Shown: positions 5,367-17,779 of the stretch, piece by piece
Position numbering within the stretch: the stretch's first letter is position 1
Layout: each line of letters opens with the position of its first letter
Assembly (NCBI RefSeq): GCF_000931465.1
Contig: NZ_CP010892.1
Coordinates: 2,479,388-2,503,387 of the forward strand
Direction: 5' to 3'
Source: Pseudomonas sp. MRSN 12121
Lineage (GTDB): Bacteria; Pseudomonadota; Gammaproteobacteria; Pseudomonadales; Pseudomonadaceae
DNA: 24,000 bases
Notes under the pieces: generated by a model
The model's database searches: none
The model's input: the letters and a program-made list of their open reading frames with translations, nothing else
What the model was told of the DNA's origin: nothing
Translations under genes and position numbers: made by a program

Positions 5367-6560
5367 ATGCTCAAATGGTGGTTGTCCGCTGCGGAACAGC
5401 GGGGTGCCGCGGGGGTCGATATCGGCGGCGCTACGCTGCATATTCGGTTTTTTTCGGGAGCCAGGCTTATCAAACTTCTGCATTCATTTCGTTGGGCCGC
5501 TGTGGTGGCCCTGCTGGCCCTGGTCGGTTGCGCCAGCCAGCACAGCGGCCAGGCACCCATGCCGAGCCCGACGCAGATCCAGGCGCAGGCGCTGCGCCTG
5601 TTGCCGGCCAGGGTCGCCGATCGCCAGGGCTGGGCGCGGGATCTCCAGGTGGCCTTTACCGCCCAGGGCATCGAGCCGAGCCAGAGCAACCTGTGCGCGG
5701 TGCTGGCGGTGGCCGAGCAGGAGTCGACCTATCAGGTCGATCCGCCGGTGCCGGGGCTGGGCAAGATCGCCCGCGAAGAGATCGACCGCCGCGCGGCCAA
5801 GGTGCATGTGCCGTCGATGCTGGTGAGCGCGGCGTTGCAGGTGCGTTCGCCGAACGGCAAGTCCTACAGCGAACGCCTGGCCGGGGCGCGCACTGAGAAG
5901 GAACTGAGCGCGATCTTCGACGACTTCATCGGCATGGTGCCCATGGGCAAGACCCTGTTCGGTGGCTTCAACCCGGTGCACACCGGCGGGCCGATGCAGG
6001 TCAGCATCGCCTTTGCCGAACAGCGGGCGCGGGATTATCCCTACCCGGTGGACGGCTCGATCCGCCACGAAGTGTTCAGCCGCCGCGGTGGCCTGTATTT
6101 CGGCGTGGCCCACCTGCTCGGTTACCCGGTGAACTACCCGCAGCCGCTGTACCGCTTCGCCGACTTCAACGCCGGCTGGTACGCCAGCCGCAACGCGGCG
6201 TTCCAGAACGCCGTGAGCGTGGCCTCGGGGATTGCCCTGGCGCTGGACGGCGACCTGATCCGCTACGACTCGATCATGCCCGGCAGCACCGAGCTGGCGG
6301 TGCGCGCCCTGGGCAAGTCCCTGGACATGCGCAACCCGACCATTCGCGACCAGCTGGAGAAGGGCAACAGCCTCGAGTTCGAGGACAGCAAGCTCTACAA
6401 GCGGGTATTCGCCCTGGCCGAGCAGGCGCAGGGCAGGGCGCTGCCGCGCCAGATCCTGCCGGGCATCGAGCTGAAGAGCCCGAAGATCACCCGCAAGTTG
6501 ACCACGGCCTGGTTCGCCAAGCGGGTGGACGAGCGGTATCAGCGGTGCATGGCGCGATAG
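5367..6560 (+). CDS. Putative lipoprotein (DUF1615-like)
   Basis: Long ORF with strong GC3 bias. It has a lipobox LLALVGC preceded by a hydrophobic h-region (about codon 35-55 of the ORF as drawn). The true start is uncertain (see findings). The DUF1615 name is from memory only. Confidence 0.7.
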   Translation: MLKWWLSAAEQRGAAGVDIGGATLHIRFFSGARLIKLLHSFRWAAVVALLALVGCASQHSGQAPMPSPTQIQAQALRLLPARVADRQGWARDLQVAFTAQGIEPSQSNLCAVLAVAEQESTYQVDPPVPGLGKIAREEIDRRAAKVHVPSMLVSAALQVRSPNGKSYSERLAGARTEKELSAIFDDFIGMVPMGKTLFGGFNPVHTGGPMQVSIAFAEQRARDYPYPVDGSIRHEVFSRRGGLYFGVAHLLGYPVNYPQPLYRFADFNAGWYASRNAAFQNAVSVASGIALALDGDLIRYDSIMPGSTELAVRALGKSLDMRNPTIRDQLEKGNSLEFEDSKLYKRVFALAEQAQGRALPRQILPGIELKSPKITRKLTTAWFAKRVDERYQRCMAR

Positions 6561-6621
6561 GCGGCAGCGAGGTGGGGAGTGGATGGCTGATCGACAGGGG
6601 AACGTCAGTGTCCTGAAATGC

Positions 6622-6654
6622 AAAAAGCCCGGCTGACAAGGCCGGGCTTTTTTT
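6622..6654. terminator. Bidirectional intrinsic terminator
   Basis: The structure is A5 - GCCCGGC (6627-6633) - loop TGACAAG - GCCGGGC (6641-6647) - T7 (6648-6654). It lies between the convergent stops at 6560 (+) and 6676 (-). Confidence 0.75.
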
Positions 6655-6675
6655 CGAGTACCGCGCATGGCGCGA

Positions 6676-7155
6676 TCATGCGGTGCGGCGTTCGTTCAGA
6701 CGATCGGAACCACCTTCGGCTACCCGGCGTTCGTTCAGACGATCGGAACCACCTTCGGCTACCCGGCGTTCGATCAGGCGATCGGAACCACCTTCGGCTA
6801 CACGGCGTTCGATCAGGCGATCGGAACCACCTTCGGCTACACGGCGTTCGATCAGGCGATCGGAACCACCTTCGGCTACACGGCGTTCGATCAGGCGATC
6901 GGAACCACCTTCGGCTACACGGCGTTCGATCAGGCGATTGGAGCCACCTTCGGCTACACGACGTTCGATCAGGCGATCGGAACCACCTTCGGCTACACGG
7001 CGTTCGATCAGGCGATCGGCGCCACCTTCGGCGACACGTTTTTCAATCAGGCGATCCGAACCGCCTTCGGCGACGACCGGGTAGGCCGAGGAGGCGGCGA
7101 AAGCGTTGGCGGCAAGGACCGAGAAAGCGATGCTGAGAAGAATTTGGCGTTTCAT
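6676..7155 (-). CDS. Secreted tandem-repeat protein: signal peptide plus 10 x 13-aa AEGGSDRLIERRV units
   Basis: GGAG lies 6 nt upstream of the ATG at 7155. The N-terminus MKRQILLSIAFSVLAANAFA is a classical Sec signal with AxA. It is followed by 10 in-frame 13-aa repeats and only one extra residue before the stop. A terminator lies downstream at 6622-6654. Confidence 0.75.
   Translation of the reverse strand: MKRQILLSIAFSVLAANAFAASSAYPVVAEGGSDRLIEKRVAEGGADRLIERRVAEGGSDRLIERRVAEGGSNRLIERRVAEGGSDRLIERRVAEGGSDRLIERRVAEGGSDRLIERRVAEGGSDRLIERRVAEGGSDRLNERRVAEGGSDRLNERRTA
6682..7071. repeat. 39-bp tandem repeat, 10 copies (coding)
   Basis: The plus-strand unit is about GGCGTTCGATCAGGCGATCGGAACCACCTTCGGCTACAC. 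Central copies are identical and terminal copies carry 1-4 substitutions. There are no spacers between copies. Confidence 0.95.
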
Positions 7156-7232
7156 GATGTGCTCCGGGGGTGCTGTTTGGTTGGTATGGAGCAGATGTTA
7201 CGTGGCGGATTTTTTTTGAGAATTTCATTGAG

Positions 7233-9238: not shown

Positions 9239-10846
9239 TCACTGCGCCTGCGCCACCAACTGCTTCCACTCCAGCCCGAAGCGCGCCAGGTATTTGCGCA
9301 GGCGGTCGGCGTCGTTGGCCTGGGCCTTGGTCTGGCGCGAGACGCCGAACAGTTTGCGTCCGGCATCGGACAGGCTGTCCGCCTGGCGACAGACCTCGAT
9401 CACCGCCTGCAACTGCAGGCGGTCGAACAGGTCGAGTTCGACGCTGTCGCCCAGCAGCGCGCCCAGCGAGTCCTGTTCCCGGCTCAAGCCCCAGGCATAA
9501 CGCAGGCGCTGGATTTCTTCCTCGACCTGGGCTTCGTCGATGCGCCCGCTGTCGGCCAGGGTGCCCATTCGGGTGATGGACGCCGACAGTTCGCGGAAGT
9601 TGCCCAGCCAGGCGGCCTCGCTGGAGCTGGCGAAGGCCAGGTAACGGCGCCGTGCCTCCAGGTTGAAGCGCACCAGTTGCCCTTGCTCCCGGGCGTGGCG
9701 CTCCAGCTCGAAGTCGATGTTCGGCTCGATGTCTTCGCGGCGTCCCGCCAGCCCCGGGAGGTTGAAGGTCCAGAGGTTGATCCGCGCATACAAGTCTTCG
9801 CGGAACAGCCCCTCGGCGACCCGGCCCCGCAGGTCGCGGTGGGTGCCGGCGATGATCAGGAAGTCGCTGGCGACCTCCTGGTCCGAACCCATGGGGAAGA
9901 AGCGCTTCTCCTCGATGGCCTTGAGCAGCATCGCCTGTTCGTCGAGGCCCAGTTCGCCGATCTCGTCGAGAAACAGCATGCCGCCGTCCGCCGCCCGCAG
10001 CAGGCCGTCGCGGGCGTTCTGGGCGCCGGTGAAGGCGCCCTTGATATGGCCGAACAGCGCCGACATGGCGCCGTCGCCGCGCAGGGTGGCGCAGTTGACT
10101 TCGACAAAGCGCCCCTGGACCTGATGCCGGCCGCGCTTGAGCTCATAGATACGCCGGGCCAGGAACGACTTGCCGGCGCCGGTGGGGCCGATCAGCAGCA
10201 TCGGCGCCCTGGAGCGCTCGGCCACCCGCTCGATCTGTTCGATGGAGCGGTTGAACGCGGCGTTGCGGGTGGCGATCCCGGACTTGAGGAAGGCCAGGCC
10301 CTCCAGGCGCTTGTGGGCGAAACGCGAGGCGATGCGGTCGTAGCGCGACAGGTCGAGATCGATCAGCGCGTGGGTGCCGGTGGCGTGTTGTTCCGGGTCG
10401 TGGCGCCGGGCCGGCGAGGTCTGGATCAGCCGGGCCGGCAGGTAGCGCGCCTCGGTCAGCAGGAACCAGCAGATCTGCGCCACATGGGTGCCGGTGGTGA
10501 TGTGCACCAGGTAATCCTCGCGCTCGGTGTCGAACGGGTAGGCGCTGGTGAAGTCGTGCAGGGCCGCGTACACCTCTTCGAAATCCCAGGGGTTCTTCAG
10601 GCCCATGGGGTGCAGGCGCACCTCGGTCTCGGGCGACACCTGGCGGATATCGTCGGCTACCCGCTGGGCCAGGCCGACGTCCCGGGCGTCCAGGCCGTGG
10701 ATCAGCTCCAGGCGCTGGATCAGCACATCCTGCTGCTGGCACAGGCCGACGCTGGGGCGCCAGTGGTTCCAGCGGTTGGCGCCCTTGCCCACGCGGTCGA
10801 GGGTGGAGCCGACAAAGCCTATGGCGACCGTAGGTTTGTTTGTCAT
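9239..10846 (-). CDS. rtcR: Sigma-54-dependent transcriptional activator RtcR (CARF-like N-domain + AAA+ + HTH)
   Basis: 535 aa. It has Walker A GPTGAGKS, the sigma-54 contact loop GAFTGA (KGAFTGAQ) and an RtcR-type N-terminus VAIGFVGSTLD. It is divergent from an operon that contains rtcB and rtcA. Confidence 0.9.
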   Translation of the reverse strand: MTNKPTVAIGFVGSTLDRVGKGANRWNHWRPSVGLCQQQDVLIQRLELIHGLDARDVGLAQRVADDIRQVSPETEVRLHPMGLKNPWDFEEVYAALHDFTSAYPFDTEREDYLVHITTGTHVAQICWFLLTEARYLPARLIQTSPARRHDPEQHATGTHALIDLDLSRYDRIASRFAHKRLEGLAFLKSGIATRNAAFNRSIEQIERVAERSRAPMLLIGPTGAGKSFLARRIYELKRGRHQVQGRFVEVNCATLRGDGAMSALFGHIKGAFTGAQNARDGLLRAADGGMLFLDEIGELGLDEQAMLLKAIEEKRFFPMGSDQEVASDFLIIAGTHRDLRGRVAEGLFREDLYARINLWTFNLPGLAGRREDIEPNIDFELERHAREQGQLVRFNLEARRRYLAFASSSEAAWLGNFRELSASITRMGTLADSGRIDEAQVEEEIQRLRYAWGLSREQDSLGALLGDSVELDLFDRLQLQAVIEVCRQADSLSDAGRKLFGVSRQTKAQANDADRLRKYLARFGLEWKQLVAQAQ

Positions 10847-10951
10847 CTTTATACCTTGAGATAAAAGGCGATAAGCAAGGATATAAAATTATCGCGGGTT
10901 TTGTCTTGAAAGGCCGTTCATGAAAATCTGATAAAAAATAAATTCATTTAA

Positions 10952-10964
10952 AATCAATAAGTTA
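10952..10964 (+). promoter_or_regulatory. IHF-binding site candidate
   Basis: AATCAATAAGTTA fits WATCAANNNNTTR exactly. It is embedded in an AT-rich stretch of about 130 bp, about 30 bp upstream of the -24 element. Confidence 0.5.
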
Positions 10965-10992
10965 AAAAATAATTTTGCCAGAAAAACAAAAC

Positions 10993-11008
10993 TGGCACAG
11001 CGGCTGCA
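10993..11008 (+). promoter_or_regulatory. Sigma-54 (-24/-12) promoter of the rsr-rtcB operon
   Basis: TGGCAC-AGCGG-CTGCA matches the consensus TGGCAC-N5-TTGCW, with correct GG-to-GC spacing (GG 10994-10995, GC 11006-11007). It lies 43 nt upstream of the rsr ATG and opposite rtcR. Confidence 0.8.
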
Positions 11009-11050
11009 ATATCTCTGGCAACGAACGAGACAACAGAGCGAGACGCCAAG

Positions 11051-12601
11051 ATGGCCAACTTCCAGCTGTTCAACACCCGCCAGGCAGCAGCGCCAGCCAG
11101 CGACACCCTGAACGCTTCCCGGGCACCGGCTTACGCCTACAACGCCAAGCACCGCCTGGCCCAGCTGGTGGTGACCGGTTGCCTGAACTCGACCTTCTAC
11201 ACCTCGCCCGAAGGCCAGCTGGAAGCGGTGCTGCAACTGGTGAGCGAACTGGACAGCCGCTTCGTCGCCCAGGCCGCTCGGTACGCTCGGCAACAGGGCC
11301 ACATGAAAGACATGCCGGCCTTGCTGTTGGCCGCGCTGACCGCGCAGCGCTCGGCCCTGGTGCCGGAGCTGTTCGCCCAGGTGGTGGACAACGGCAAGAT
11401 GCTGCGCAACTACGTGCAGATCCTGCGCAGCGGCGTGACCGGGCGTAAATCCCTGGGTTCGCAGCCCAAGCGCCTGGTGCAGAACTGGTTGAACAGCGCC
11501 ACCGAGCGTCAGCTATTGCAGGCCGCGGTGGGTAACCAGCCGTCGCTGGCGGACCTGGTGAAGATGGTCCACCCCAAGCCGAGCGAGGCCTGGCGCGAAG
11601 CCTTCTTCGCCTGGTTGATCGGCAAGCCGGTGGATGCGCAGGCATTGCCCGAACTGACCCGCGCCTTGCTGGCCTTTCGCAGCGGTGCGACCACGCAAGT
11701 GCCGCCGGTGCCGTTCCAGCTGCTGGGTAACGAAACCCTGAGCGGCGAGCAATGGGCGGAGCAGGCGCGCAACATGGGCTGGCAGGGGCTGCGCATGAAC
11801 CTCAACACCCTGGCCCGCCACGGCGCGTTCCAGGTGCCGGGCTGCGCCGAGTATGTGGCGGCGCGGCTGGCGGATGCCGCCGAGGTGGCCAAGGCCCGGG
11901 TCTACCCGTACCAGTTGCTGGCGGCCTACCGCATGGCCGGCGACGAGGTGCCGCAGGTGGTGCGCGAGGCGTTGCAGGATGCCCTGGAACTGTCCCTGGC
12001 CAATGTGCCGGCGCTGCCGGGGAACGTGGTGGTGTGCCCGGATGTCTCGGGGTCGATGCACAGCCCGGTCACCGGCTATCGCCAGGGCGCGACCACGGCG
12101 GTACGTTGCATCGATGTGGCGGCGCTGGTGGCGGCAGCCGTGTTGCGCAAGCAGCCGGCGGCGCGCGTCATGCCCTTCGAGGTCGGGGTGGTGGATATCC
12201 GCCTCAACCCTCGGGACAGCGTGATGAGCAACGCGCAGAAACTGGCGGCCATCGGCGGTGGCGGGACCAACTGCTCGGCGCCCCTGGCACAGCTGGCCAA
12301 TGCCAAGTGCAAGGTGGATACCCTGATCCTGGTCTCGGACAACGAGTCGTGGATCGATGCGCGGCGCCACGGGGCGACCGAGACCCTGCGCCAGTGGGAG
12401 CGGATCAAGGCCATCAACCCGCAGGCGCGGCTGGTGTGCATCGATATGCAGCCCGGGGCGACCACCCAGGCGCCGGACCGCGCGGACATCCTCAACGTCG
12501 GCGGCTTCAGCGACGCGGTGTTCGACGTGATCCAGCAGTTCACCGCGGGCAACTACGGTGCGCAGCATTGGGTCAAGGCCATCGAGGCGCTGGCGCCCTG
12601 A
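11051..12601 (+). CDS. rsr: Ro60-related protein Rsr (TROVE domain + vWA domain)
   Basis: 516 aa. The N-terminal part is TROVE-like (NAKHRLAQLVVTGCLNSTFYTS). The C-terminal part is vWA with the MIDAS motif DVSGSM. Its position between rtcR and rtcB matches the Salmonella rsr-yrlBA-rtcBA layout. Confidence 0.85.
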   Translation: MANFQLFNTRQAAAPASDTLNASRAPAYAYNAKHRLAQLVVTGCLNSTFYTSPEGQLEAVLQLVSELDSRFVAQAARYARQQGHMKDMPALLLAALTAQRSALVPELFAQVVDNGKMLRNYVQILRSGVTGRKSLGSQPKRLVQNWLNSATERQLLQAAVGNQPSLADLVKMVHPKPSEAWREAFFAWLIGKPVDAQALPELTRALLAFRSGATTQVPPVPFQLLGNETLSGEQWAEQARNMGWQGLRMNLNTLARHGAFQVPGCAEYVAARLADAAEVAKARVYPYQLLAAYRMAGDEVPQVVREALQDALELSLANVPALPGNVVVCPDVSGSMHSPVTGYRQGATTAVRCIDVAALVAAAVLRKQPAARVMPFEVGVVDIRLNPRDSVMSNAQKLAAIGGGGTNCSAPLAQLANAKCKVDTLILVSDNESWIDARRHGATETLRQWERIKAINPQARLVCIDMQPGATTQAPDRADILNVGGFSDAVFDVIQQFTAGNYGAQHWVKAIEALAP

Positions 12602-12623
12602 GCGGCAAAAGATGAGATAAACC

Positions 12624-12645
12624 GTGCGCCGGCGAGCCGGCGCAC
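12624..12645 (+). other. GC-rich hairpin just after the rsr stop (no U-tract)
   Basis: GTGCGCCGGC-GA-GCCGGCGCAC is a 10-nt perfect inverted repeat. No T-run follows, so it is a possible processing or stability element rather than a terminator. Confidence 0.5.
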
Positions 12646-12665
12646 GTCGATGATGTTTGATCATT

Positions 12666-12723
12666 GGCCCCGAATGCCGCCGTGACTACCTCCAAAGACG
12701 TCTCGGCAGATCTTGTCTGGGCC
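12666..12723 (+). ncRNA. Y-RNA-like module 0 (minimal stem-loop, no tRNA-like domain)
   Basis: The closing helix is GGCCCCGA/TCTGGGCC (one C-U mismatch). It has the loop AUGCC, an 8-bp helix GCCGTGAC/GTCTCGGC (one U-U), UAC after the helix and CUUG-UCU on the 3' side. The layout matches modules 1-4. Confidence 0.4.
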
Positions 12724-12729
12724 TGTGAA

Positions 12730-12814
12730 GGCACGAATGCCAGTGGCTGTACCTCCTGGTTGGGCCGGTTCGAATCCGGCAATCAGTCACTACTGTTGTC
12801 GTGCCACCTTTTTT
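12730..12814 (+). ncRNA. Y-RNA-like module 1 (Ro-binding-type stem + T-arm hairpin + U6 tail)
   Basis: The closing helix is GGCACGA (12730-12736)/TCGTGCC (12799-12805). It has AUGCC and an 8-bp helix AGTGGCTG/CAGTCACT. The T-arm is GCCGG-TTCGAAT-CCGGC (12764-12780). The 3' side reads ACUGUUG-UCG and then ACC-TTTTTT (12809-12814). Confidence 0.65.
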
Positions 12815-12820
12815 GCTTTT

Positions 12821-12958
12821 GCGACGAATGCGGGTGGAACTACATCCAAGGTTCGAGGTGCGGGTTCGAGTCCCGCCGGTGCCCGGAAAAGGCACCGTGG
12901 TTCAATGGTCAGAGCACGAGTGCACTGTTCCACCAACCCTTGTCGTCGCCTCTTTTTT
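12821..12958 (+). ncRNA. YrlA-like Y RNA module 2 (permuted tRNA-like domain, U6 tail)
   Basis: The closing helix is GCGACGA (12821-12827)/TCGTCGC (12943-12949), with an 8-bp helix GGTGGAAC/GTTCCACC. The T-arm is GCGGG-TTCGAGT-CCCGC (12860-12876). A 7-bp capped acceptor CGGTGCC-CGGAAAA-GGCACCG spans 12877-12897. After UG comes the D-arm GTTC-AATGGTCA-GAGC (12900-12915). The tail is CTC-TTTTTT (12953-12958). Confidence 0.75.
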
Positions 12959-12974
12959 CCCGCCTTGGCGGGGT

Positions 12975-13082
12975 GGCAGCGAATGCCACGGGTACTACAT
13001 GGTGTCGCGGGTTCGAGCCCCGCCAGCCGCAAGGCTGTAGCTCAGTCGGTAGAGCGAATGTGCCCGTTCCCTTGTCGCTGCC
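12975..13082 (+). ncRNA. YrlA-like Y RNA module 3 (permuted tRNA-like domain)
   Basis: The closing helix is GGCAGCGA (12975-12982)/TCGCTGCC (13075-13082). It has AUGCC and an 8-bp helix ACGGGTAC/GTGCCCGT. The T-arm is GCGGG-TTCGAGC-CCCGC (13007-13023). The acceptor CAGCC-GCAA-GGCTG (13024-13037) has a GNRA cap. After UA comes the D-arm GCTC-AGTCGGTA-GAGC (13040-13055). Confidence 0.78.
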
Positions 13083-13109
13083 CGCAGGCCAGGCCTGCAC
13101 CGATTGACC

Positions 13110-13224
13110 CGGCGAATGCCGGTGGAACTACAGGACAGCGTGGTCGCGGGTTCGATTCCCGCCAACCGCAAGGGGCTAGCTCAGTGGTAGAGCGCGCTGC
13201 ATGTTCCGCCTTCACTGGTCGCCG
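13110..13224 (+). ncRNA. YrlA-like Y RNA module 4 (permuted tRNA-like domain)
   Basis: The closing helix is CGGCGA (13110-13115)/TCGCCG (13219-13224). It has AUGCC and an 8-bp helix GGTGGAAC/GTTCCGCC (one G-U). The T-arm is GCGGG-TTCGATT-CCCGC (13146-13162). The acceptor CAACC-GCAA-GGGGC is weak, with only 2 Watson-Crick pairs. After UA comes the D-arm GCTC-AGTGGTA-GAGC (13179-13193). Confidence 0.72.
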
Positions 13225-13290
13225 TTTACGCCGCGCTGTCGGTCACCGAACAAGGTCGAATTGTCGACCACAGAAGAAAGAGCCAAGAAC

Positions 13291-14517
13291 ATGGAACACA
13301 AGACCTGGCAACTGCTGGAAGTCGCCAACGGCAAGCCGATCAAGATGTGGACCCAGGGCGTGCCCGTGGAAAACGAAGCCCGCCAGCAGCTGATGAATAC
13401 CGCGAAGATGCCGTTCATCTTCAAGCACCTGGCGGTGATGCCCGACGTGCACCTGGGCAAGGGTTCGACCATCGGCAGCGTGATCCCGACCCTGGGCGCG
13501 ATCATTCCCGCGGCCGTCGGCGTGGATATCGGCTGCGGCATGATCGCCGCCCGCACCTCGCTGACGGCGGCGGACCTGCCGGACAACCTGCACGGCCTGC
13601 GCTGCGCCATTGAAAGTGCCGTGCCCCATGGGCGTACCGCGCCGCGCAGCGGCCGCGACAAGGGCGCCTGGGGCGAGGTGCCGCAGCAGGCCGACCGGGT
13701 CTGGGCGACCTTGCATCCGCGCTTCAAGGCGATCACCGACAAGTACCCGGCGCTGGCCAAGAGCAACAACCGCCAGCACCTGGGAACGCTCGGTGGCGGC
13801 AACCACTTCATCGAAGTCTGCCTGGATGAAGCCAACCGGGTCTGGTTCATGCTGCACAGCGGTTCCCGTGGCGTGGGTAACGCGATCGGCAACCTGTTCA
13901 TCCAGCTGGCCCAGGCGGATATGCGCCAGCACATCGCCGATCTGCCACACCGGGATCTGGCGTATTTCAAGGAAGGTAGCCGGCACTTCGACGATTACGT
14001 CGAAGCCGTGGGCTGGGCCCAGGACTTCGCCCGGCAGAACCGCGAGTTGATGATGCAGGCGGTGATCCAGGCCACCCGCCAGGTGATCCGCAAACCCTTC
14101 GAGGTGGCGCTGGAGGCGGTGAACTGCCACCACAACTACGTGCAGAAGGAGCGTCATTTCGGTGAGGAGGTGCTGGTGACCCGCAAGGGCGCGGTGTCGG
14201 CGCAAAAGGGCGAGCTGGGGATCATCCCGGGGTCGATGGGGGCCAAGAGCTTCATCGTCCGCGGCCTGGGCAACGAGGAGGCGTTCTGCTCCTGCAGCCA
14301 TGGGGCCGGGCGCACCATGAGCCGCACCAAGGCCAAGGACACCTTCACCCTGGCCGACCAGATCCGCGCCACCGCCCATGTGGAATGCCGCAAGGACACG
14401 GCGGTGATCGATGAAATCCCGATGGCCTACAAGGACATCGACCAAGTCATGCACGCCCAGCGCGAGCTGGTGGAAGTGCTGCACACCCTGCGTCAGGTAG
14501 TGTGCGTAAAGGGGTAG
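13291..14517 (+). CDS. rtcB: RNA-splicing ligase RtcB (3'-phosphate/5'-hydroxyl RNA ligase)
   Basis: The start is reset to ATG 13291 (MEHKTWQLLEV...), giving 408 aa as in E. coli RtcB. It is collinear with my memory of E. coli RtcB (KMWTQGVPVE, ARQQLMNTAKMPFIFKHLAVMPDVHLGKGSTIGSV, VGVDIGCGM, GGGNHFIE, HSGSRGVGN, NCHHNY, SCSHGAGR). Confidence 0.95.
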   Translation: MEHKTWQLLEVANGKPIKMWTQGVPVENEARQQLMNTAKMPFIFKHLAVMPDVHLGKGSTIGSVIPTLGAIIPAAVGVDIGCGMIAARTSLTAADLPDNLHGLRCAIESAVPHGRTAPRSGRDKGAWGEVPQQADRVWATLHPRFKAITDKYPALAKSNNRQHLGTLGGGNHFIEVCLDEANRVWFMLHSGSRGVGNAIGNLFIQLAQADMRQHIADLPHRDLAYFKEGSRHFDDYVEAVGWAQDFARQNRELMMQAVIQATRQVIRKPFEVALEAVNCHHNYVQKERHFGEEVLVTRKGAVSAQKGELGIIPGSMGAKSFIVRGLGNEEAFCSCSHGAGRTMSRTKAKDTFTLADQIRATAHVECRKDTAVIDEIPMAYKDIDQVMHAQRELVEVLHTLRQVVCVKG

Positions 14518-14521
14518 AGCG

Positions 14522-15865
14522 ATGTACGACAGGGAAGCACTGATAGCGGTCCCGCCCAGCTGGCATGACCAGTTGAGCGATTACGAAGCCCGCCGCGTGC
14601 GGGAGGTGATGGACTCACTGGACAGGCACAGTGCCTGGCTGGAACTGAGCCGCTTCGGCAACGGTTTTGTGCGGCAGGCGGCGGTACGCGGGTTGGCCGT
14701 GCAGCCTTCGGCAGAGGCCCTGGCCGCTTTGCTGGAGCGCCTCAACGATTGGGTGCCCCAGGTCCGCCAGGAGGCCGCTGCGGCCGTCGAGGGTTATCTG
14801 GTGCCGGAGCATGCGGGCCTGCTGTTGCAGAACCTGGTGCCGCTGCTGACCCTGGCCGGCAAGCAGCGTGCGGACCATGGCGCCACCCTGGCCAGGGCCC
14901 GCTCGGTGTTGCAACTGCCCCAGGTCCGGGCTGAGGTCGAACGTGCCTTTGGCGCGTCTTTGGGCAAGGCGGCGCGTTTTGTCTTCGAGCTGTTGCTGGA
15001 AGGCGCGCCAGACCGTGCCGGGTTGCTGGCGATGGCGTTGCGGCACCGGGATGTCAGTGTCCAGCAGATGGCGGTGGATGCCTGTGCCGGGTTGCCCGGC
15101 GGGCAGGCGGTGCCGTTGCTGGAGGAGGTGCTGCAGCGCTGCAGCGCCAGCGTTCGGGTCAAGGCTCTGCGGCTGTTGTTGCCGTTGCTGGCCGACCCCG
15201 GCGCGCCTCTGCGCCAGGGGTTGCTCGACCCTTCGGCAGCCATGCGTTGCCTGGCACTCTGGGCGGCCCCGCGGTATGGGCTGGACCCGCACGCAGTGCT
15301 GCAGGCCCGGTTGCTCGAGCCGGCGCCGCGGAACAAGCGTGGATGGCTGGGCCTGCTGGGGCTGGTCAAGGAACTGCAGGAGCTCCGGGCCGACGCCATG
15401 GTGCAACAGGCCCTGGCCTCGCCGGCGCCGAGCGTGCGTCTGCTGGCACTGCAGGTCCTCGACGAGCGGGGCCCGTCCGAGCAGCTCGCGGCCCTGGACG
15501 ACCCGGCGGACAAGGTCTTCAACGCTGCCCTGAGCCTGTTGCACAGGCAGCCGTGGGCGGTGTTCGAGCCGGCCCTGGAGCAGCGTCTGGACCAGCATTG
15601 GCATGCGCTGCCAGCAGCGCGTCGCCAGGCCATGCTGGGGCTCAAGCCCGGTTGGCGCCAGGTGCAATACCTGCTGCATCGCCTGGATCGGGCGGACAGT
15701 GACGCCGGCTACTGGCGCGAGACCCTGGCCCGTTGGTGCGATGCCCGCTATGTGATGTTCGACCCGGTGACTCCCAAGCCTGTGCGCGAGCAGCTGGCGC
15801 AGCGGTTACGGGTCATGGAAGAGGCCGGCGAACTGCCGCCGGGGTCGGTCAAGCGCCTGCTGTGA
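14522..15865 (+). CDS. HEAT-repeat (PBS-lyase-like) alpha-solenoid protein of unknown function
   Basis: 447 aa. Its start lies 4 nt after the rtcB stop, with an AAGGGG Shine-Dalgarno-like sequence upstream, and GC3 is high. It is Leu/Ala-rich with recurring motifs of the type xVRxxAxxxL (VRQAAVRGLA, VRQEAAAAVEGYL, VSVQQMAVDACAGL, VRVKALRLLLPLL, VRLLALQVL). No catalytic motif was recognised. Confidence 0.7.
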   Translation: MYDREALIAVPPSWHDQLSDYEARRVREVMDSLDRHSAWLELSRFGNGFVRQAAVRGLAVQPSAEALAALLERLNDWVPQVRQEAAAAVEGYLVPEHAGLLLQNLVPLLTLAGKQRADHGATLARARSVLQLPQVRAEVERAFGASLGKAARFVFELLLEGAPDRAGLLAMALRHRDVSVQQMAVDACAGLPGGQAVPLLEEVLQRCSASVRVKALRLLLPLLADPGAPLRQGLLDPSAAMRCLALWAAPRYGLDPHAVLQARLLEPAPRNKRGWLGLLGLVKELQELRADAMVQQALASPAPSVRLLALQVLDERGPSEQLAALDDPADKVFNAALSLLHRQPWAVFEPALEQRLDQHWHALPAARRQAMLGLKPGWRQVQYLLHRLDRADSDAGYWRETLARWCDARYVMFDPVTPKPVREQLAQRLRVMEEAGELPPGSVKRLL

Positions 15866-15938: not shown

Positions 15939-16727
15939 ATGCAACACCATGAACCCCACCCGCTGGACAGCGCGATGCGCGAGCGGGTACTGAGCGAGCT
16001 GGCGCGGATCGAGCGCGAGCGCAATGTGCGGGTGCTGTATGCCTGCGAATCCGGTAGCCGGGCCTGGGGCTTCGCCTCCACCGACAGCGATTACGACGTG
16101 CGTTTCGTCTATGTGGAAAAGCCCGAGTGGTTCATCCAGGTGGACCCCGGTCGGGATGTGATTGAGCGTCCCCTGGACGACGAGCTGGACGTCAGCGGCT
16201 GGGAGCTGCGCAAGACCCTCGGGCTGTTGCGCAAGTCCAACCCGACCCTGCTGGAGTGGCTGGATTCGCCCCTGGTGTATCGCAGTGAGCCGGCGGCCAC
16301 CGCGCGCCTGCGCGAGCTGGCCGAGGCGTTCTACAGCCCGCCGGCGGCGCGCAATCATTATCTGTCGATGGCCAGGAAGAATTTTCGCGGTTATCTGCAA
16401 GGCGACAGCGTGCGCTTCAAGAAGTACTTCTACGTGCTCCGGCCGTTGCTGGCGGTGCGCTGGATCGATCAGGGCCGCGGCCGGCCGCCGATGACCTTCG
16501 CCGAGCTGCTGGACACTGTCGACCATCGGCCGCTGCTGGACGAAGTGGATGAGTTGCTGGCCTTGAAGCGCAATGCCGACGAGTCCGCCTACGGGCCACG
16601 GCGAACGGCGCTGCATGCCTTTATCGCCGCCGAACTGGAACGCCCGGTGCCGAAGCTGCCGCGCACCCATCAAGACAATGCGTGGCTGGACGCCTACTTG
16701 CGAGAAACCGTCCGGCACTACGCCTGA
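15939..16727 (+). CDS. Pol-beta-superfamily nucleotidyltransferase (RlaP / PF10127-like, RtcB-associated)
   Basis: 262 aa, with AAGGA upstream of the ATG. The motif CESGSRAWGFASTDSDYDV matches the G[SG]-x(9-13)-DxD minimal nucleotidyltransferase signature. The RlaP family name is from my recollection of comparative-genomic literature and is not verified here. Confidence 0.75.
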   Translation: MQHHEPHPLDSAMRERVLSELARIERERNVRVLYACESGSRAWGFASTDSDYDVRFVYVEKPEWFIQVDPGRDVIERPLDDELDVSGWELRKTLGLLRKSNPTLLEWLDSPLVYRSEPAATARLRELAEAFYSPPAARNHYLSMARKNFRGYLQGDSVRFKKYFYVLRPLLAVRWIDQGRGRPPMTFAELLDTVDHRPLLDEVDELLALKRNADESAYGPRRTALHAFIAAELERPVPKLPRTHQDNAWLDAYLRETVRHYA

Positions 16728-16735
16728 GGAGCCTC

Positions 16736-17779
16736 ATGAAACAGGACGTCATCGAACTGGACGGCGCCATCGGCGGCGGCCAGGTACTGCGCAGTGCCCT
16801 GAGCTTGTCGATGCTCACCGGCAAAACCCTGCGGATTCACAACATACGGGCCCGGCGCGCCCGCCCGGGGCTGCTGCGCCAGCACCTGACCGCGGTACAG
16901 GCGGCCGCGCAGATCAGCGGGGCCAGGGTCCTGGGCGCCGAGCTGGGTTCCCGGGCGCTGACCTTCGAGCCGGGGCCGATTCGCGGCGGCGACTACCGCT
17001 TCGCCATCGGCACCGCCGGCAGCTGCACCCTGGTGTTGCAGACGCTGCTGCCGGCCTTGCTCCAGGCGCCGCAGCCGAGCCGCGTGAGCATCAGCGGCGG
17101 CACCCACAACCCCCTGGCGCCGCCGGTGGATTTCCTCCAGCAGGCTTGGCTGCCGCTACTGCGGCGCATGGGTGCACGGGTGGAATTGCAACTGCTGCGC
17201 CACGGTTTCGTTCCCGCTGGCGGCGGTGAGCTGGAGGCGTTCATCCAGCCGTCGACGCTGCACCCTTTGCACCTGGAACAGCGTGGCGCCGTGCTCGGAC
17301 GCCGGGCCTGGGCCTTGAGTGCCGGCTTGCCCGCGCATGTGGCGGAACGCGAGTTGCAGCGGGTTGGCCAGCGCCTGGATCTGCCGGCGGAACACCTGAG
17401 CCCGGTGCATCTGGAGGAACAATGTGGCCCGGGCAACGTGTTATTGCTGGCGTTCGCCTGCGAGCACCTGACCGAAGTGTTCAGCGGTTTCGGCCAGAGC
17501 AGCCAGCGCGCGGAAAGCGTGGCCGACGGTGCCATCGACCAGGCCCGGGACTGGCTGGACTCCGGCGTCGCAGTAGCGGAGCACCTGGCCGATCAACTGC
17601 TGCTACCCATGGCCCTGGCCGGTGGTGGAAGCTTCACCACCCCACGCATGAGCGAGCACCTGCAAAGCAATATCCGGGTGATCGAGGCGTTTTTGCCGGT
17701 GCGTATCGACTGTTCGGCGCACTCCCGGGAAGTCCTGCGGGTCGAGGTTCTGCCAATCGCCCCCTGGCGTCTAAGCTAG
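16736..17779 (+). CDS. rtcA: RNA 3'-terminal phosphate cyclase RtcA
   Basis: The start is reset to ATG 16736, with GAGGA 5 nt upstream and 8 nt after the previous stop. The 347-aa protein is collinear with E. coli RtcA as recalled (GGGQVLRSALSLSMLTG, RPGLLRQHLTAV, GGDYRFAIGTAGSCTLVLQTLLPAL, LLRHGFVPAGGG, EHLADQLLLPMALAG). Confidence 0.93.
   Translation: MKQDVIELDGAIGGGQVLRSALSLSMLTGKTLRIHNIRARRARPGLLRQHLTAVQAAAQISGARVLGAELGSRALTFEPGPIRGGDYRFAIGTAGSCTLVLQTLLPALLQAPQPSRVSISGGTHNPLAPPVDFLQQAWLPLLRRMGARVELQLLRHGFVPAGGGELEAFIQPSTLHPLHLEQRGAVLGRRAWALSAGLPAHVAERELQRVGQRLDLPAEHLSPVHLEEQCGPGNVLLLAFACEHLTEVFSGFGQSSQRAESVADGAIDQARDWLDSGVAVAEHLADQLLLPMALAGGGSFTTPRMSEHLQSNIRVIEAFLPVRIDCSAHSREVLRVEVLPIAPWRLS

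Follow-up and report, generated by a model that had tools for sequence, protein, structure and literature searches.

Most of what is understood about the function of bacterial Ro60 and its Y RNAs comes from a single species, which has two of these RNAs. In Salmonella, the operon rsr-yrlBA-rtcBA is driven by RtcR and sigma-54 (PMC7790460). YrlA (RF02553) was first found in Salmonella Typhimurium and is predicted beside rsr in >250 bacteria and phages; Chen et al. (2014) counted 355 putative YrlAs in 276 genomes, listing every copy ≤4 kb from rsr, and showed the YrlA of Pseudomonas fulva (PMC4201824). YrlA is further characterised by binding to and stabilisation by Rsr and by tRNA-type modifications (pseudouridine, dihydrouridine). 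In Mycobacterium smegmatis and Deinococcus radiodurans, polycistronic precursors are cleaved to yield Y RNAs, which Rsr binds and stabilises (PMC4201824), and a CGAA-containing 5′ motif (CGAAUG in the basal stem of the YrlA/YrlB type) has been proposed as the Rsr site (Chen et al. 2014, PMC4201824). Here, we analysed a 24-kb stretch of the genome of Pseudomonas sp. MRSN 12121 (contig NZ_CP010892.1, positions 2,479,388 to 2,503,387; hereafter the window), which encodes a complete RNA-repair locus according to Pfam and tblastn searches. The spacer between its Ro60 orthologue gene rsr and the RNA ligase gene rtcB contains five tandem modules, M0 to M4, and very probably constitutes an array of five Y RNA genes within an operon controlled by RtcR and sigma-54.

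The five modules lie on the + strand, 65-625 nt 3′ of the rsr stop codon (Table 1), and are built on a common basal stem. Specifically, a closing helix ending in CGA is followed by AUGC(N), an 8-bp helix, UAC and a variable insert; the structure then continues with the return strand, YUUG, and UCG with the closing helix. A search for the exact motif CGAATGC-N9-TAC gave five matches in the window, all on the + strand (at 12671, 12734, 12825, 12980, and 13113), and none in 100 dinucleotide-preserving shuffles. When each module was folded alone by minimum free energy (MFE), the two-helix basal stem was recovered in all five cases; several helices include G.U pairs in addition to the mismatches of M0 discussed below. 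We further built a covariance model (R1) from short modules of other clades, leaving out the window and its nine closest relatives, and used it, with filters switched off, to search both strands of the entire window. The top five matches are exactly the five modules: M0 (44.6 bits, E 2.1e-10), M3 (31.0 bits), M2 (26.8 bits), M1 (26.4 bits), and M4 (23.9 bits, E 1e-4), while the next best match in the window scores 10.5 bits (E 0.6). Across the window and 80 related loci (755 kb, both strands), R1 returned 248 matches at E ≤ 0.05, all of which share the strand of rsr and fall in the interval from its stop codon to rtcB. These searches, together with that of a second model (R2, below), exclude chance, generic repeats and tRNA remnants. 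Additionally, the motif and R1 both place the CGAA-containing 5′ strand of the terminal helix, which is shared with RNAs experimentally bound by Rsr, in all five modules.

An initial annotation of this DNA, made from the sequence alone, had proposed five modules in a 689-nt spacer devoid of any credible open reading frame (ORF), and the above counts agree with it. Two ORFs can be drawn in the spacer (12664-13107 and 12713-13393); neither has a Pfam match, and the indels that separate orthologous modules have lengths not divisible by three and would break the reading frame. On these grounds, protein coding was rejected. The ten helices listed in that annotation are all present, with the two mismatches in M0 (C.U and U.U) left unmentioned there. 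Its further point, that complementarity is preserved although the helix strands vary from copy to copy, also stands, and the covariation for which it suggested testing orthologous spacers was found, since pairing among orthologues is kept through compensatory changes.

Modules M2, M3, and M4 belong to the YrlA type. In Rfam searches, all three align to the full YrlA model (positions 1-114): M4 over 13109-13228 with 72.0 bits and M3 over 12976-13084 with 71.9 bits, both above the gathering score of 69, and M2, which was added by a permissive scan of the spacer, over 12821-12952 with 65.3 bits, just under that score (local E 1.5e-14). The cmscan alignments and the consensus folds of M2 and M4 display the YrlA layout, in which the T-arm lies 5′ of the D-arm, with a stem between them, and the whole is enclosed by the basal stem. 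The M2 fold (23 orthologues) comprises the basal stem, the T-arm, the acceptor-like stem (AS), where compensatory changes are seen, and the D-arm. The M4 fold (24 orthologues) likewise contains the basal stem and both arms with a stem between them, and each pair of its inner closing helix shows 7-13 double changes. Among M3 orthologues sharing the closing helix GCAGCGA/UCGCUGC, helix 2 exists in the compensatory versions CGGGUAC/GUGCCCG, CAGGUAC/GUGCCUG, and UGGGUAC/GUGCCCA. The motif GNCGAAN0-1G with its leading G is found in M2 (GACGAAUG) and M4 (GGCGAAUG), and M3 has AGCGAAUG.

The acceptor-like stem measures 7 bp in M2-type modules (12877-12895 in the window) and 4-5 bp with GNRA loops in M3 and M4. 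As the RNase P cleavage of M. smegmatis YrlA has been ascribed to its 7-bp stem (Chen et al. 2014, PMC4201824), M2 is a candidate substrate of this enzyme, and by this analogy the M2 type, alone among the modules, may be cleaved by RNase P. No tRNA gene was found in the window by ARAGORN, and no tRNA match by Rfam at the gathering score. In two relatives, the Rfam tRNA model has matches above its gathering score (L030, 5846-5963, 32.6 bits; L033, 5846-5984, 30.4 bits); both matches are composed of the D-arm of one YrlA copy and the T-arm of the next, an annotation trap that arises from tandem YrlA genes. They echo the idea that YrlA derived from dimeric tRNA transcripts.

The two remaining modules are simpler. 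M1 carries a single T-arm on the basal stem and has an MFE z-score of −3.5. R2, a covariance model of the M1 type from which the window clade was excluded, detects it with 62.6 bits (E 5.8e-16). In the M1-type alignment (44 homologues), 95.6% of the cells are paired, a share that drops to 29-53% if the 3′ partner is shifted by 1-3 columns, and 13 pairs show double changes, which sit in the closing helix, helix 2, the T-stem, and a second GNRA-capped hairpin that is absent from M1 of the window. M0 is a minimal hairpin, and its alignment (38 distinct homologues) gives a similar picture: 88.8% of the cells are paired versus 23-54% after sliding, with 145 double-change cells. For both types, the covariation score was reached by none of 500 shuffles. 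Against the Rfam YrlB model (RF02565), M1 scores only 17.4 bits (E 1.9), where the gathering score is 97, and M0 has no Rfam match in the permissive scan up to E = 10. Membership of M0 and M1 in Rfam YrlB was thus rejected, and neither is captured by any Rfam family. M0-type hairpins occur in Pseudomonas and several betaproteobacterial genera, with five or more copies in Undibacterium and Chitinimonas, and are the first element past the rsr stop in nearly all loci. We tentatively consider, as a reading whose chances fall somewhat short of even, that the M0 type (56-66 nt, with a UACAUCC-purine-rich loop on the basal Rsr stem) is a widespread minimal class of Y RNA, which together with the M1 type and three YrlA paralogues would yield five or more Rsr ribonucleoproteins (RNPs) per stress-induced transcript.

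Next, we compared the array with those of related rsr loci. A scan for the Rsr protein, with one genome taken per species, gave 80 loci from Pseudomonas and genera split off from it, Chitinimonas, Undibacterium, Massilia, and others. Identity of Rsr reaches 96% in the closest relatives, which are Pseudomonas species; the nine nearest loci are L001-L009. The order rtcR, rsr, spacer, and rtcB is kept in most of them, with spacers of 245-1752 nt. Modules were counted in 75 spacers with a simple pattern scan for the basal stem, which detects them directly 3′ of rsr in nearly all loci and for which the opposite strand gives a background of 0.06 matches per kb. A stricter scan (CGAA anchor, threshold 15) missed M0 in the window and its relatives, and M0 was recovered by relaxing the anchor and by covariance model search. 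Five modules were counted in 17 spacers, four in 20, three in 29, two in six, one in one, and none in two, so that arrays of three to five modules are the norm (66 of 75). At the Rfam threshold, the relatives scanned hold two to three YrlA copies per locus. Modules of the same order and sizes as in the window (about 56, 76-88, 126-131, 104-106, and 117-123 nt) are found at the Ectopseudomonas and Phytopseudomonas loci L030, L033, L038, L039, L040, and L056, where Rsr is only ~80% identical. In the P. fluorescens/koreensis group, only M0-, M1-, and M3-type modules are present.

Each position of the array has a closing helix of its own that is conserved across species: GGCACGA/UCGUGCC in M1, GCGACGA/UCGUCGC in M2, GCAGCGA/UCGCUGC in M3, and CCGGCGA/UCGCCGY in M4. 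These helices are kept among species whose Rsr proteins are 75-96% identical, which indicates that the paralogues stem from old duplications and have been maintained separately rather than homogenised. Some loci have considerably longer arrays. Seven Undibacterium loci (L057, L059, L060, L062, L063, L066, and L070; ~5630-7180) hold 6-7 modules, mostly hairpins of 57-66 nt spaced ~100 nt apart, and end in a YrlA-like copy just before rtcB. The locus of Chitinimonas lacunae (L055, 5604-6505) has at least six modules, of which the first four are ~65-nt hairpins with a period of ~170 nt; no rtcB was found within the 4 kb examined there.

Table 1 Features of the RNA-repair locus, in window coordinates
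Feature	Position	Strand	Description
M0	12666-12723	+	58-nt minimal Y-like hairpin; basal stem and pyrimidine-rich loop UACCUCCAAAGAC
M1	12730-12805	+	76-nt Y-like RNA; basal stem and single T-arm (GCCGG-UUCGAAU-CCGGC), no D-arm; followed by ACC + U6
M2	12821-12949	+	YrlA-type; T-arm, 7-bp acceptor-like stem, D-arm; followed by CUC + U6 and small hairpin 12960-12973
M3	12975-13082	+	YrlA-type; T-arm, 5-bp stem with GCAA loop, canonical D-arm UAGCUCAGUCGGUAGAGC; followed by hairpin 13084-13098
M4	13109-13225	+	YrlA-type; extra covarying helix closes the tRNA-like domain
GC-rich 10-bp hairpin	12623-12646	+	CGTGCGCCGG-CGAG-CCGGCGCACG; 22 nt past rsr stop, 20 nt before M0
Putative sigma-54-type promoter	10993-11008	+	TGGCAC-N5-CTGCA, TGGCACAGCGGCTGCA; upstream of rsr
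rsr-rtcB spacer	rsr ORF end 12601, rtcB start 13291		689 nt
rtcR	9239-10846	−	Divergent from rsr; Pfam RtcR and sigma-54 activator/interaction domains
rsr (Ro60 orthologue)	11051-12601	+	Pfam vWA_Ro60 8.9e-22; TROVE 9e-06
rtcB (RNA ligase)	13291-14517	+	Pfam RtcB 1.5e-129; first cistron past the array
HEAT-repeat protein	14522-15865		447 aa (Pfam); between rtcB and rtcA
RlaP nucleotidyltransferase	15939-16727		Pfam; between rtcB and rtcA
rtcA	ends 17779		Pfam; longest ORF from GTG at 16682

The promoter-like site upstream of rsr has one mismatch to TGGCACN5TTGCW and lies 43 nt ahead of the rsr ATG; it is the likely RtcR-dependent start of a transcript spanning rsr, the Y array, and rtcB. No sigma-70 promoter was found in the spacer, and no separate promoter-like site in 10500-13600. 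A sigma-54 likeness directly past M1 (12802-12817, TGCCACCTTTTTTGCT, TGCCAC...) has one mismatch to the consensus, but the essential GG is missing; moreover, sigma-54 pattern matches with one to two mismatches are no more frequent than expected by chance. An internal promoter was therefore rejected, and we judge the likeness to be a chance product of the M1 3′ strand and the U-run. Canonical intrinsic terminators were likewise not found in the spacer, where the sole terminator-like call is the hairpin at 12623-12646, on the minus strand. On the + strand, no U-run directly follows this hairpin, whose stem is conserved and whose loop varies in the nine closest relatives; it may serve as a barrier to processing, or stabilise the rsr cistron by protecting its processed 3′ end. 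The linkers are conserved as well. In the window (12806-12820) and the equivalents of L001-L056, the closing helix of M1 is followed by ACC + U4-6, and that of M2 by NYC + U4-6 and then a small GC hairpin (12950-12974); small GC hairpins are conserved in the linkers after both M2 and M3. Weak intrinsic termination at the M1 and M2 linkers could tune the ratio of Y RNA to rtcB mRNA, as could RNase E or Hfq if these linkers are sites for either.

We infer the transcription, processing, Rsr binding, and partners of the five RNAs by analogy with the Salmonella operon and with M. smegmatis and D. radiodurans, in which Y RNAs derive from polycistronic precursors. Homology and position make it most likely that the five modules are co-transcribed with rsr and rtcB. 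One transcript would start at the sigma-54 promoter near 10993 and run through rsr, the five modules, and rtcB. Endonucleases would cut the short U-rich or hairpin linkers, and exonucleases would trim the products back to the closing helices. Rsr, the presumed protein partner of the five RNAs, would bind the basal stem shared by all of them (N4-CGA/UCG-N4, with the conserved unpaired AUGC and YUUG). The variable apical parts, namely the pyrimidine-rich loop of M0, the lone T-arm of M1, and the three distinct tRNA-like domains of M2-M4, would then give five different Rsr RNPs and may tether Rsr to different partners, e.g., PNPase, tRNA-binding proteins, or RNA-repair proteins.

The reading of the spacer as five Y RNA genes stands on the structures, the YrlA homology, the covariation, the exclusive position 3′ of rsr, the old, separately kept paralogues, and a setting among genes for RtcR, Rsr, RtcB, RlaP, and RtcA with a sigma-54-type promoter. 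Several observations weigh against it. The single-module MFE z-scores are modest (−1.5 to −3.5), the YrlA score of M2 is borderline, and the motif frequencies from the pattern scan are partly circular, in that the scan was anchored on CGAA and rewarded AUGC, UUG, and UCG. A single read-through transcript would be harder to envisage if transcription stopped at the U-runs that follow M1 and M2, as it could. These U-runs and the linker hairpins, being conserved, also fit a role in cis, in which the modules are parts of the mRNA that are not released, i.e., Rsr sites or structured barriers in the 3′ untranslated region (UTR) of rsr or the 5′ UTR of rtcB. Such elements would act in mRNA stability, Rsr autoregulation, or the control of rtcB read-through, e.g., through a closing helix plus U-run after M1 and M2. 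The leading position of M0-type hairpins past the rsr stop and the failure to find a separate promoter-like site in 10500-13600 point the same way. However, homologous elements in all three experimentally studied species accumulate as discrete Rsr-bound RNAs from longer precursors (PMC4201824), and a mere barrier function would hardly account for three distinct tRNA-like domains whose T and D loops are conserved. We regard a purely cis-acting array as quite unlikely; a role in cis is compatible with the production of Y RNAs, and both could hold. M0, for example, may not be released from the rsr mRNA and may serve there as a site of autoregulation by Rsr.

Further objections concern M0 of the window, where the closing helix GGCCCCGA/UCUGGGCC contains one C.U mismatch and helix 2 (GCCGUGAC/GUCUCGGC) one U.U mismatch. 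M0 in L002-L009 reads GGCCCUGA...UCAGGGCC, with CUGAAUG in place of CGAAUG and the CGAA motif lost; the window and L001 have CCGAAUG with the mismatch. M0 may accordingly bind Rsr weakly or in another manner. M0 of the window also has the lowest R1 score among M0-type orthologues (44.6 versus 50-70 bits). It could accordingly be read as a decaying copy that drifts without function, leaving four functional modules. Against such decay, M0 is kept at the same position in the window and all of L001-L009, its closing helix is a perfect 8 bp in L002-L009, a C-G pair of helix 2 has become U-A by compensatory change among the closest relatives, and the U.U position itself is conserved. Additionally, the loop UACNUCCAAAGAC is conserved as far as species with Rsr ~80% identical. 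The compensatory change and the conserved U.U indicate that M0 is structurally constrained in this clade, yet off the canonical motif, and we consider its decay unlikely. A degenerate array of tRNA genes, or REP-like palindromic repeats without any link to Rsr, is effectively refuted. The T- and D-arm sequences are indeed tRNA-like, and the Rfam tRNA model weakly scores the M2 D-arm plus M3 T-arm in two relatives. However, ARAGORN finds no tRNA in the window, the T-arm precedes the D-arm as in YrlA and unlike in tRNA, and the modules are confined to one strand of the rsr-rtcB interval in the 755 kb searched. M0 has no tRNA arms and M1 a T-arm only, yet both share the basal stem.

Downstream of the array, the longest rtcA ORF (16682-17779) overlaps the 3′ end of the RlaP gene; homologues of rtcA align only from residue 19 onward, and the true start therefore probably lies near 16736. 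The HEAT-repeat gene is present in some relatives and absent from others, such as the P. fluorescens/koreensis group; it seems frequent at loci with 4-5 modules. The remaining genes of the window are ordinary chromosomal ones, encoding ALAD, a flavin adenine dinucleotide (FAD) monooxygenase, GST, and a decarboxylase.

Multiple Y RNAs beside rsr are already known, and multiple YrlA-like genes there were reported in 2014; the locus extends this known system. M2, M3, and M4 share with YrlA the basal stem, the T- and D-arms, and the stem between these arms, and they lie on the rsr strand in the rsr-rtcB spacer, <1 kb from rsr and thus inside the same-strand range of ≤4 kb. They differ in that three paralogues stand in a row, each with its own conserved closing helix and acceptor-like stem length. 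M0, as a hairpin with a pyrimidine-rich loop, and M1, as a stem with a T-arm, fit the verbal descriptions of YrlB, and the CGAAUGC...UUGUCG stem is also part of the Rfam YrlB consensus, but neither matches the YrlB model significantly. Their families span Pseudomonas and several betaproteobacterial genera, whereas a BLASTN search with Salmonella YrlB in 2014 returned orthologues in S. enterica serovars only (PMC4201824). With metazoan Y RNAs, the modules share their small size, a terminal stem with CGA(A) on the 5′ strand and UUG on the 3′ strand, which in the metazoan RNAs binds the Ro60 ring, and the presence of several paralogues per genome. Metazoan Y RNAs are individual Pol III genes without a tRNA-like domain, whereas the modules form an array inside an operon.

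Set against these systems, the initial annotation fared unevenly. Its assignment of the modules to Y-RNA-like RNAs is supported by the YrlA scores of M3 and M4, the near-threshold match of M2, and the basal stem in all five, and the operon position it compared with Salmonella corresponds to rsr-yrlBA-rtcBA (PMC7790460). The Rfam models it pointed to gave a divided result, with YrlA matching M2-M4 (M2 below threshold) and no family matching M0 or M1. The suggested likeness of M1 to vertebrate Y RNAs has no model support, as the metazoan Rfam Y_RNA model has no match in 12550-13350 up to E = 10. The array had also been called an expanded and possibly undescribed variant. It is not an unusual expansion, given the usual three to five modules per spacer and the 6-7 in Undibacterium; the second half of the phrase may hold for the M0 and M1 classes, which have no Rfam model. 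In full-text literature searches and Rfam, a scope that did not include the 2014 supplementary tables or the Sim and Wolin 2018 review, we found no description of the M0- and M1-type conserved families, the fixed five-paralogue order, or the 6-7-module arrays. Nor did any paper retrieved in these searches report an array with at least five Y RNAs.

These findings overturn nothing in the current understanding, and they add to it in several respects. The 2014 study recognised only the 5′ strand of the Rsr-binding stem in Salmonella and mycobacterial RNAs (PMC4201824); here, the stem strands CGAAUGC and UUGUCG are both nearly invariant. The M0 and M1 types are two conserved classes with covariation support and working covariance models, which could join the RNA family databases and would improve the annotation of rsr-rtcB spacers, now left blank or filled with spurious ORFs. 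If M0-type hairpins are indeed a minimal Y RNA class alongside the M1 type and the three YrlA paralogues, five or more different Rsr RNPs would come from one stress-induced transcript. Pseudomonas offers a genetically tractable genus with five Y RNAs of distinct structure encoded in a single RtcR-controlled operon. Each of them is conserved as a separate group of orthologues, which suggests that different Rsr RNPs divide the labour during RNA repair.

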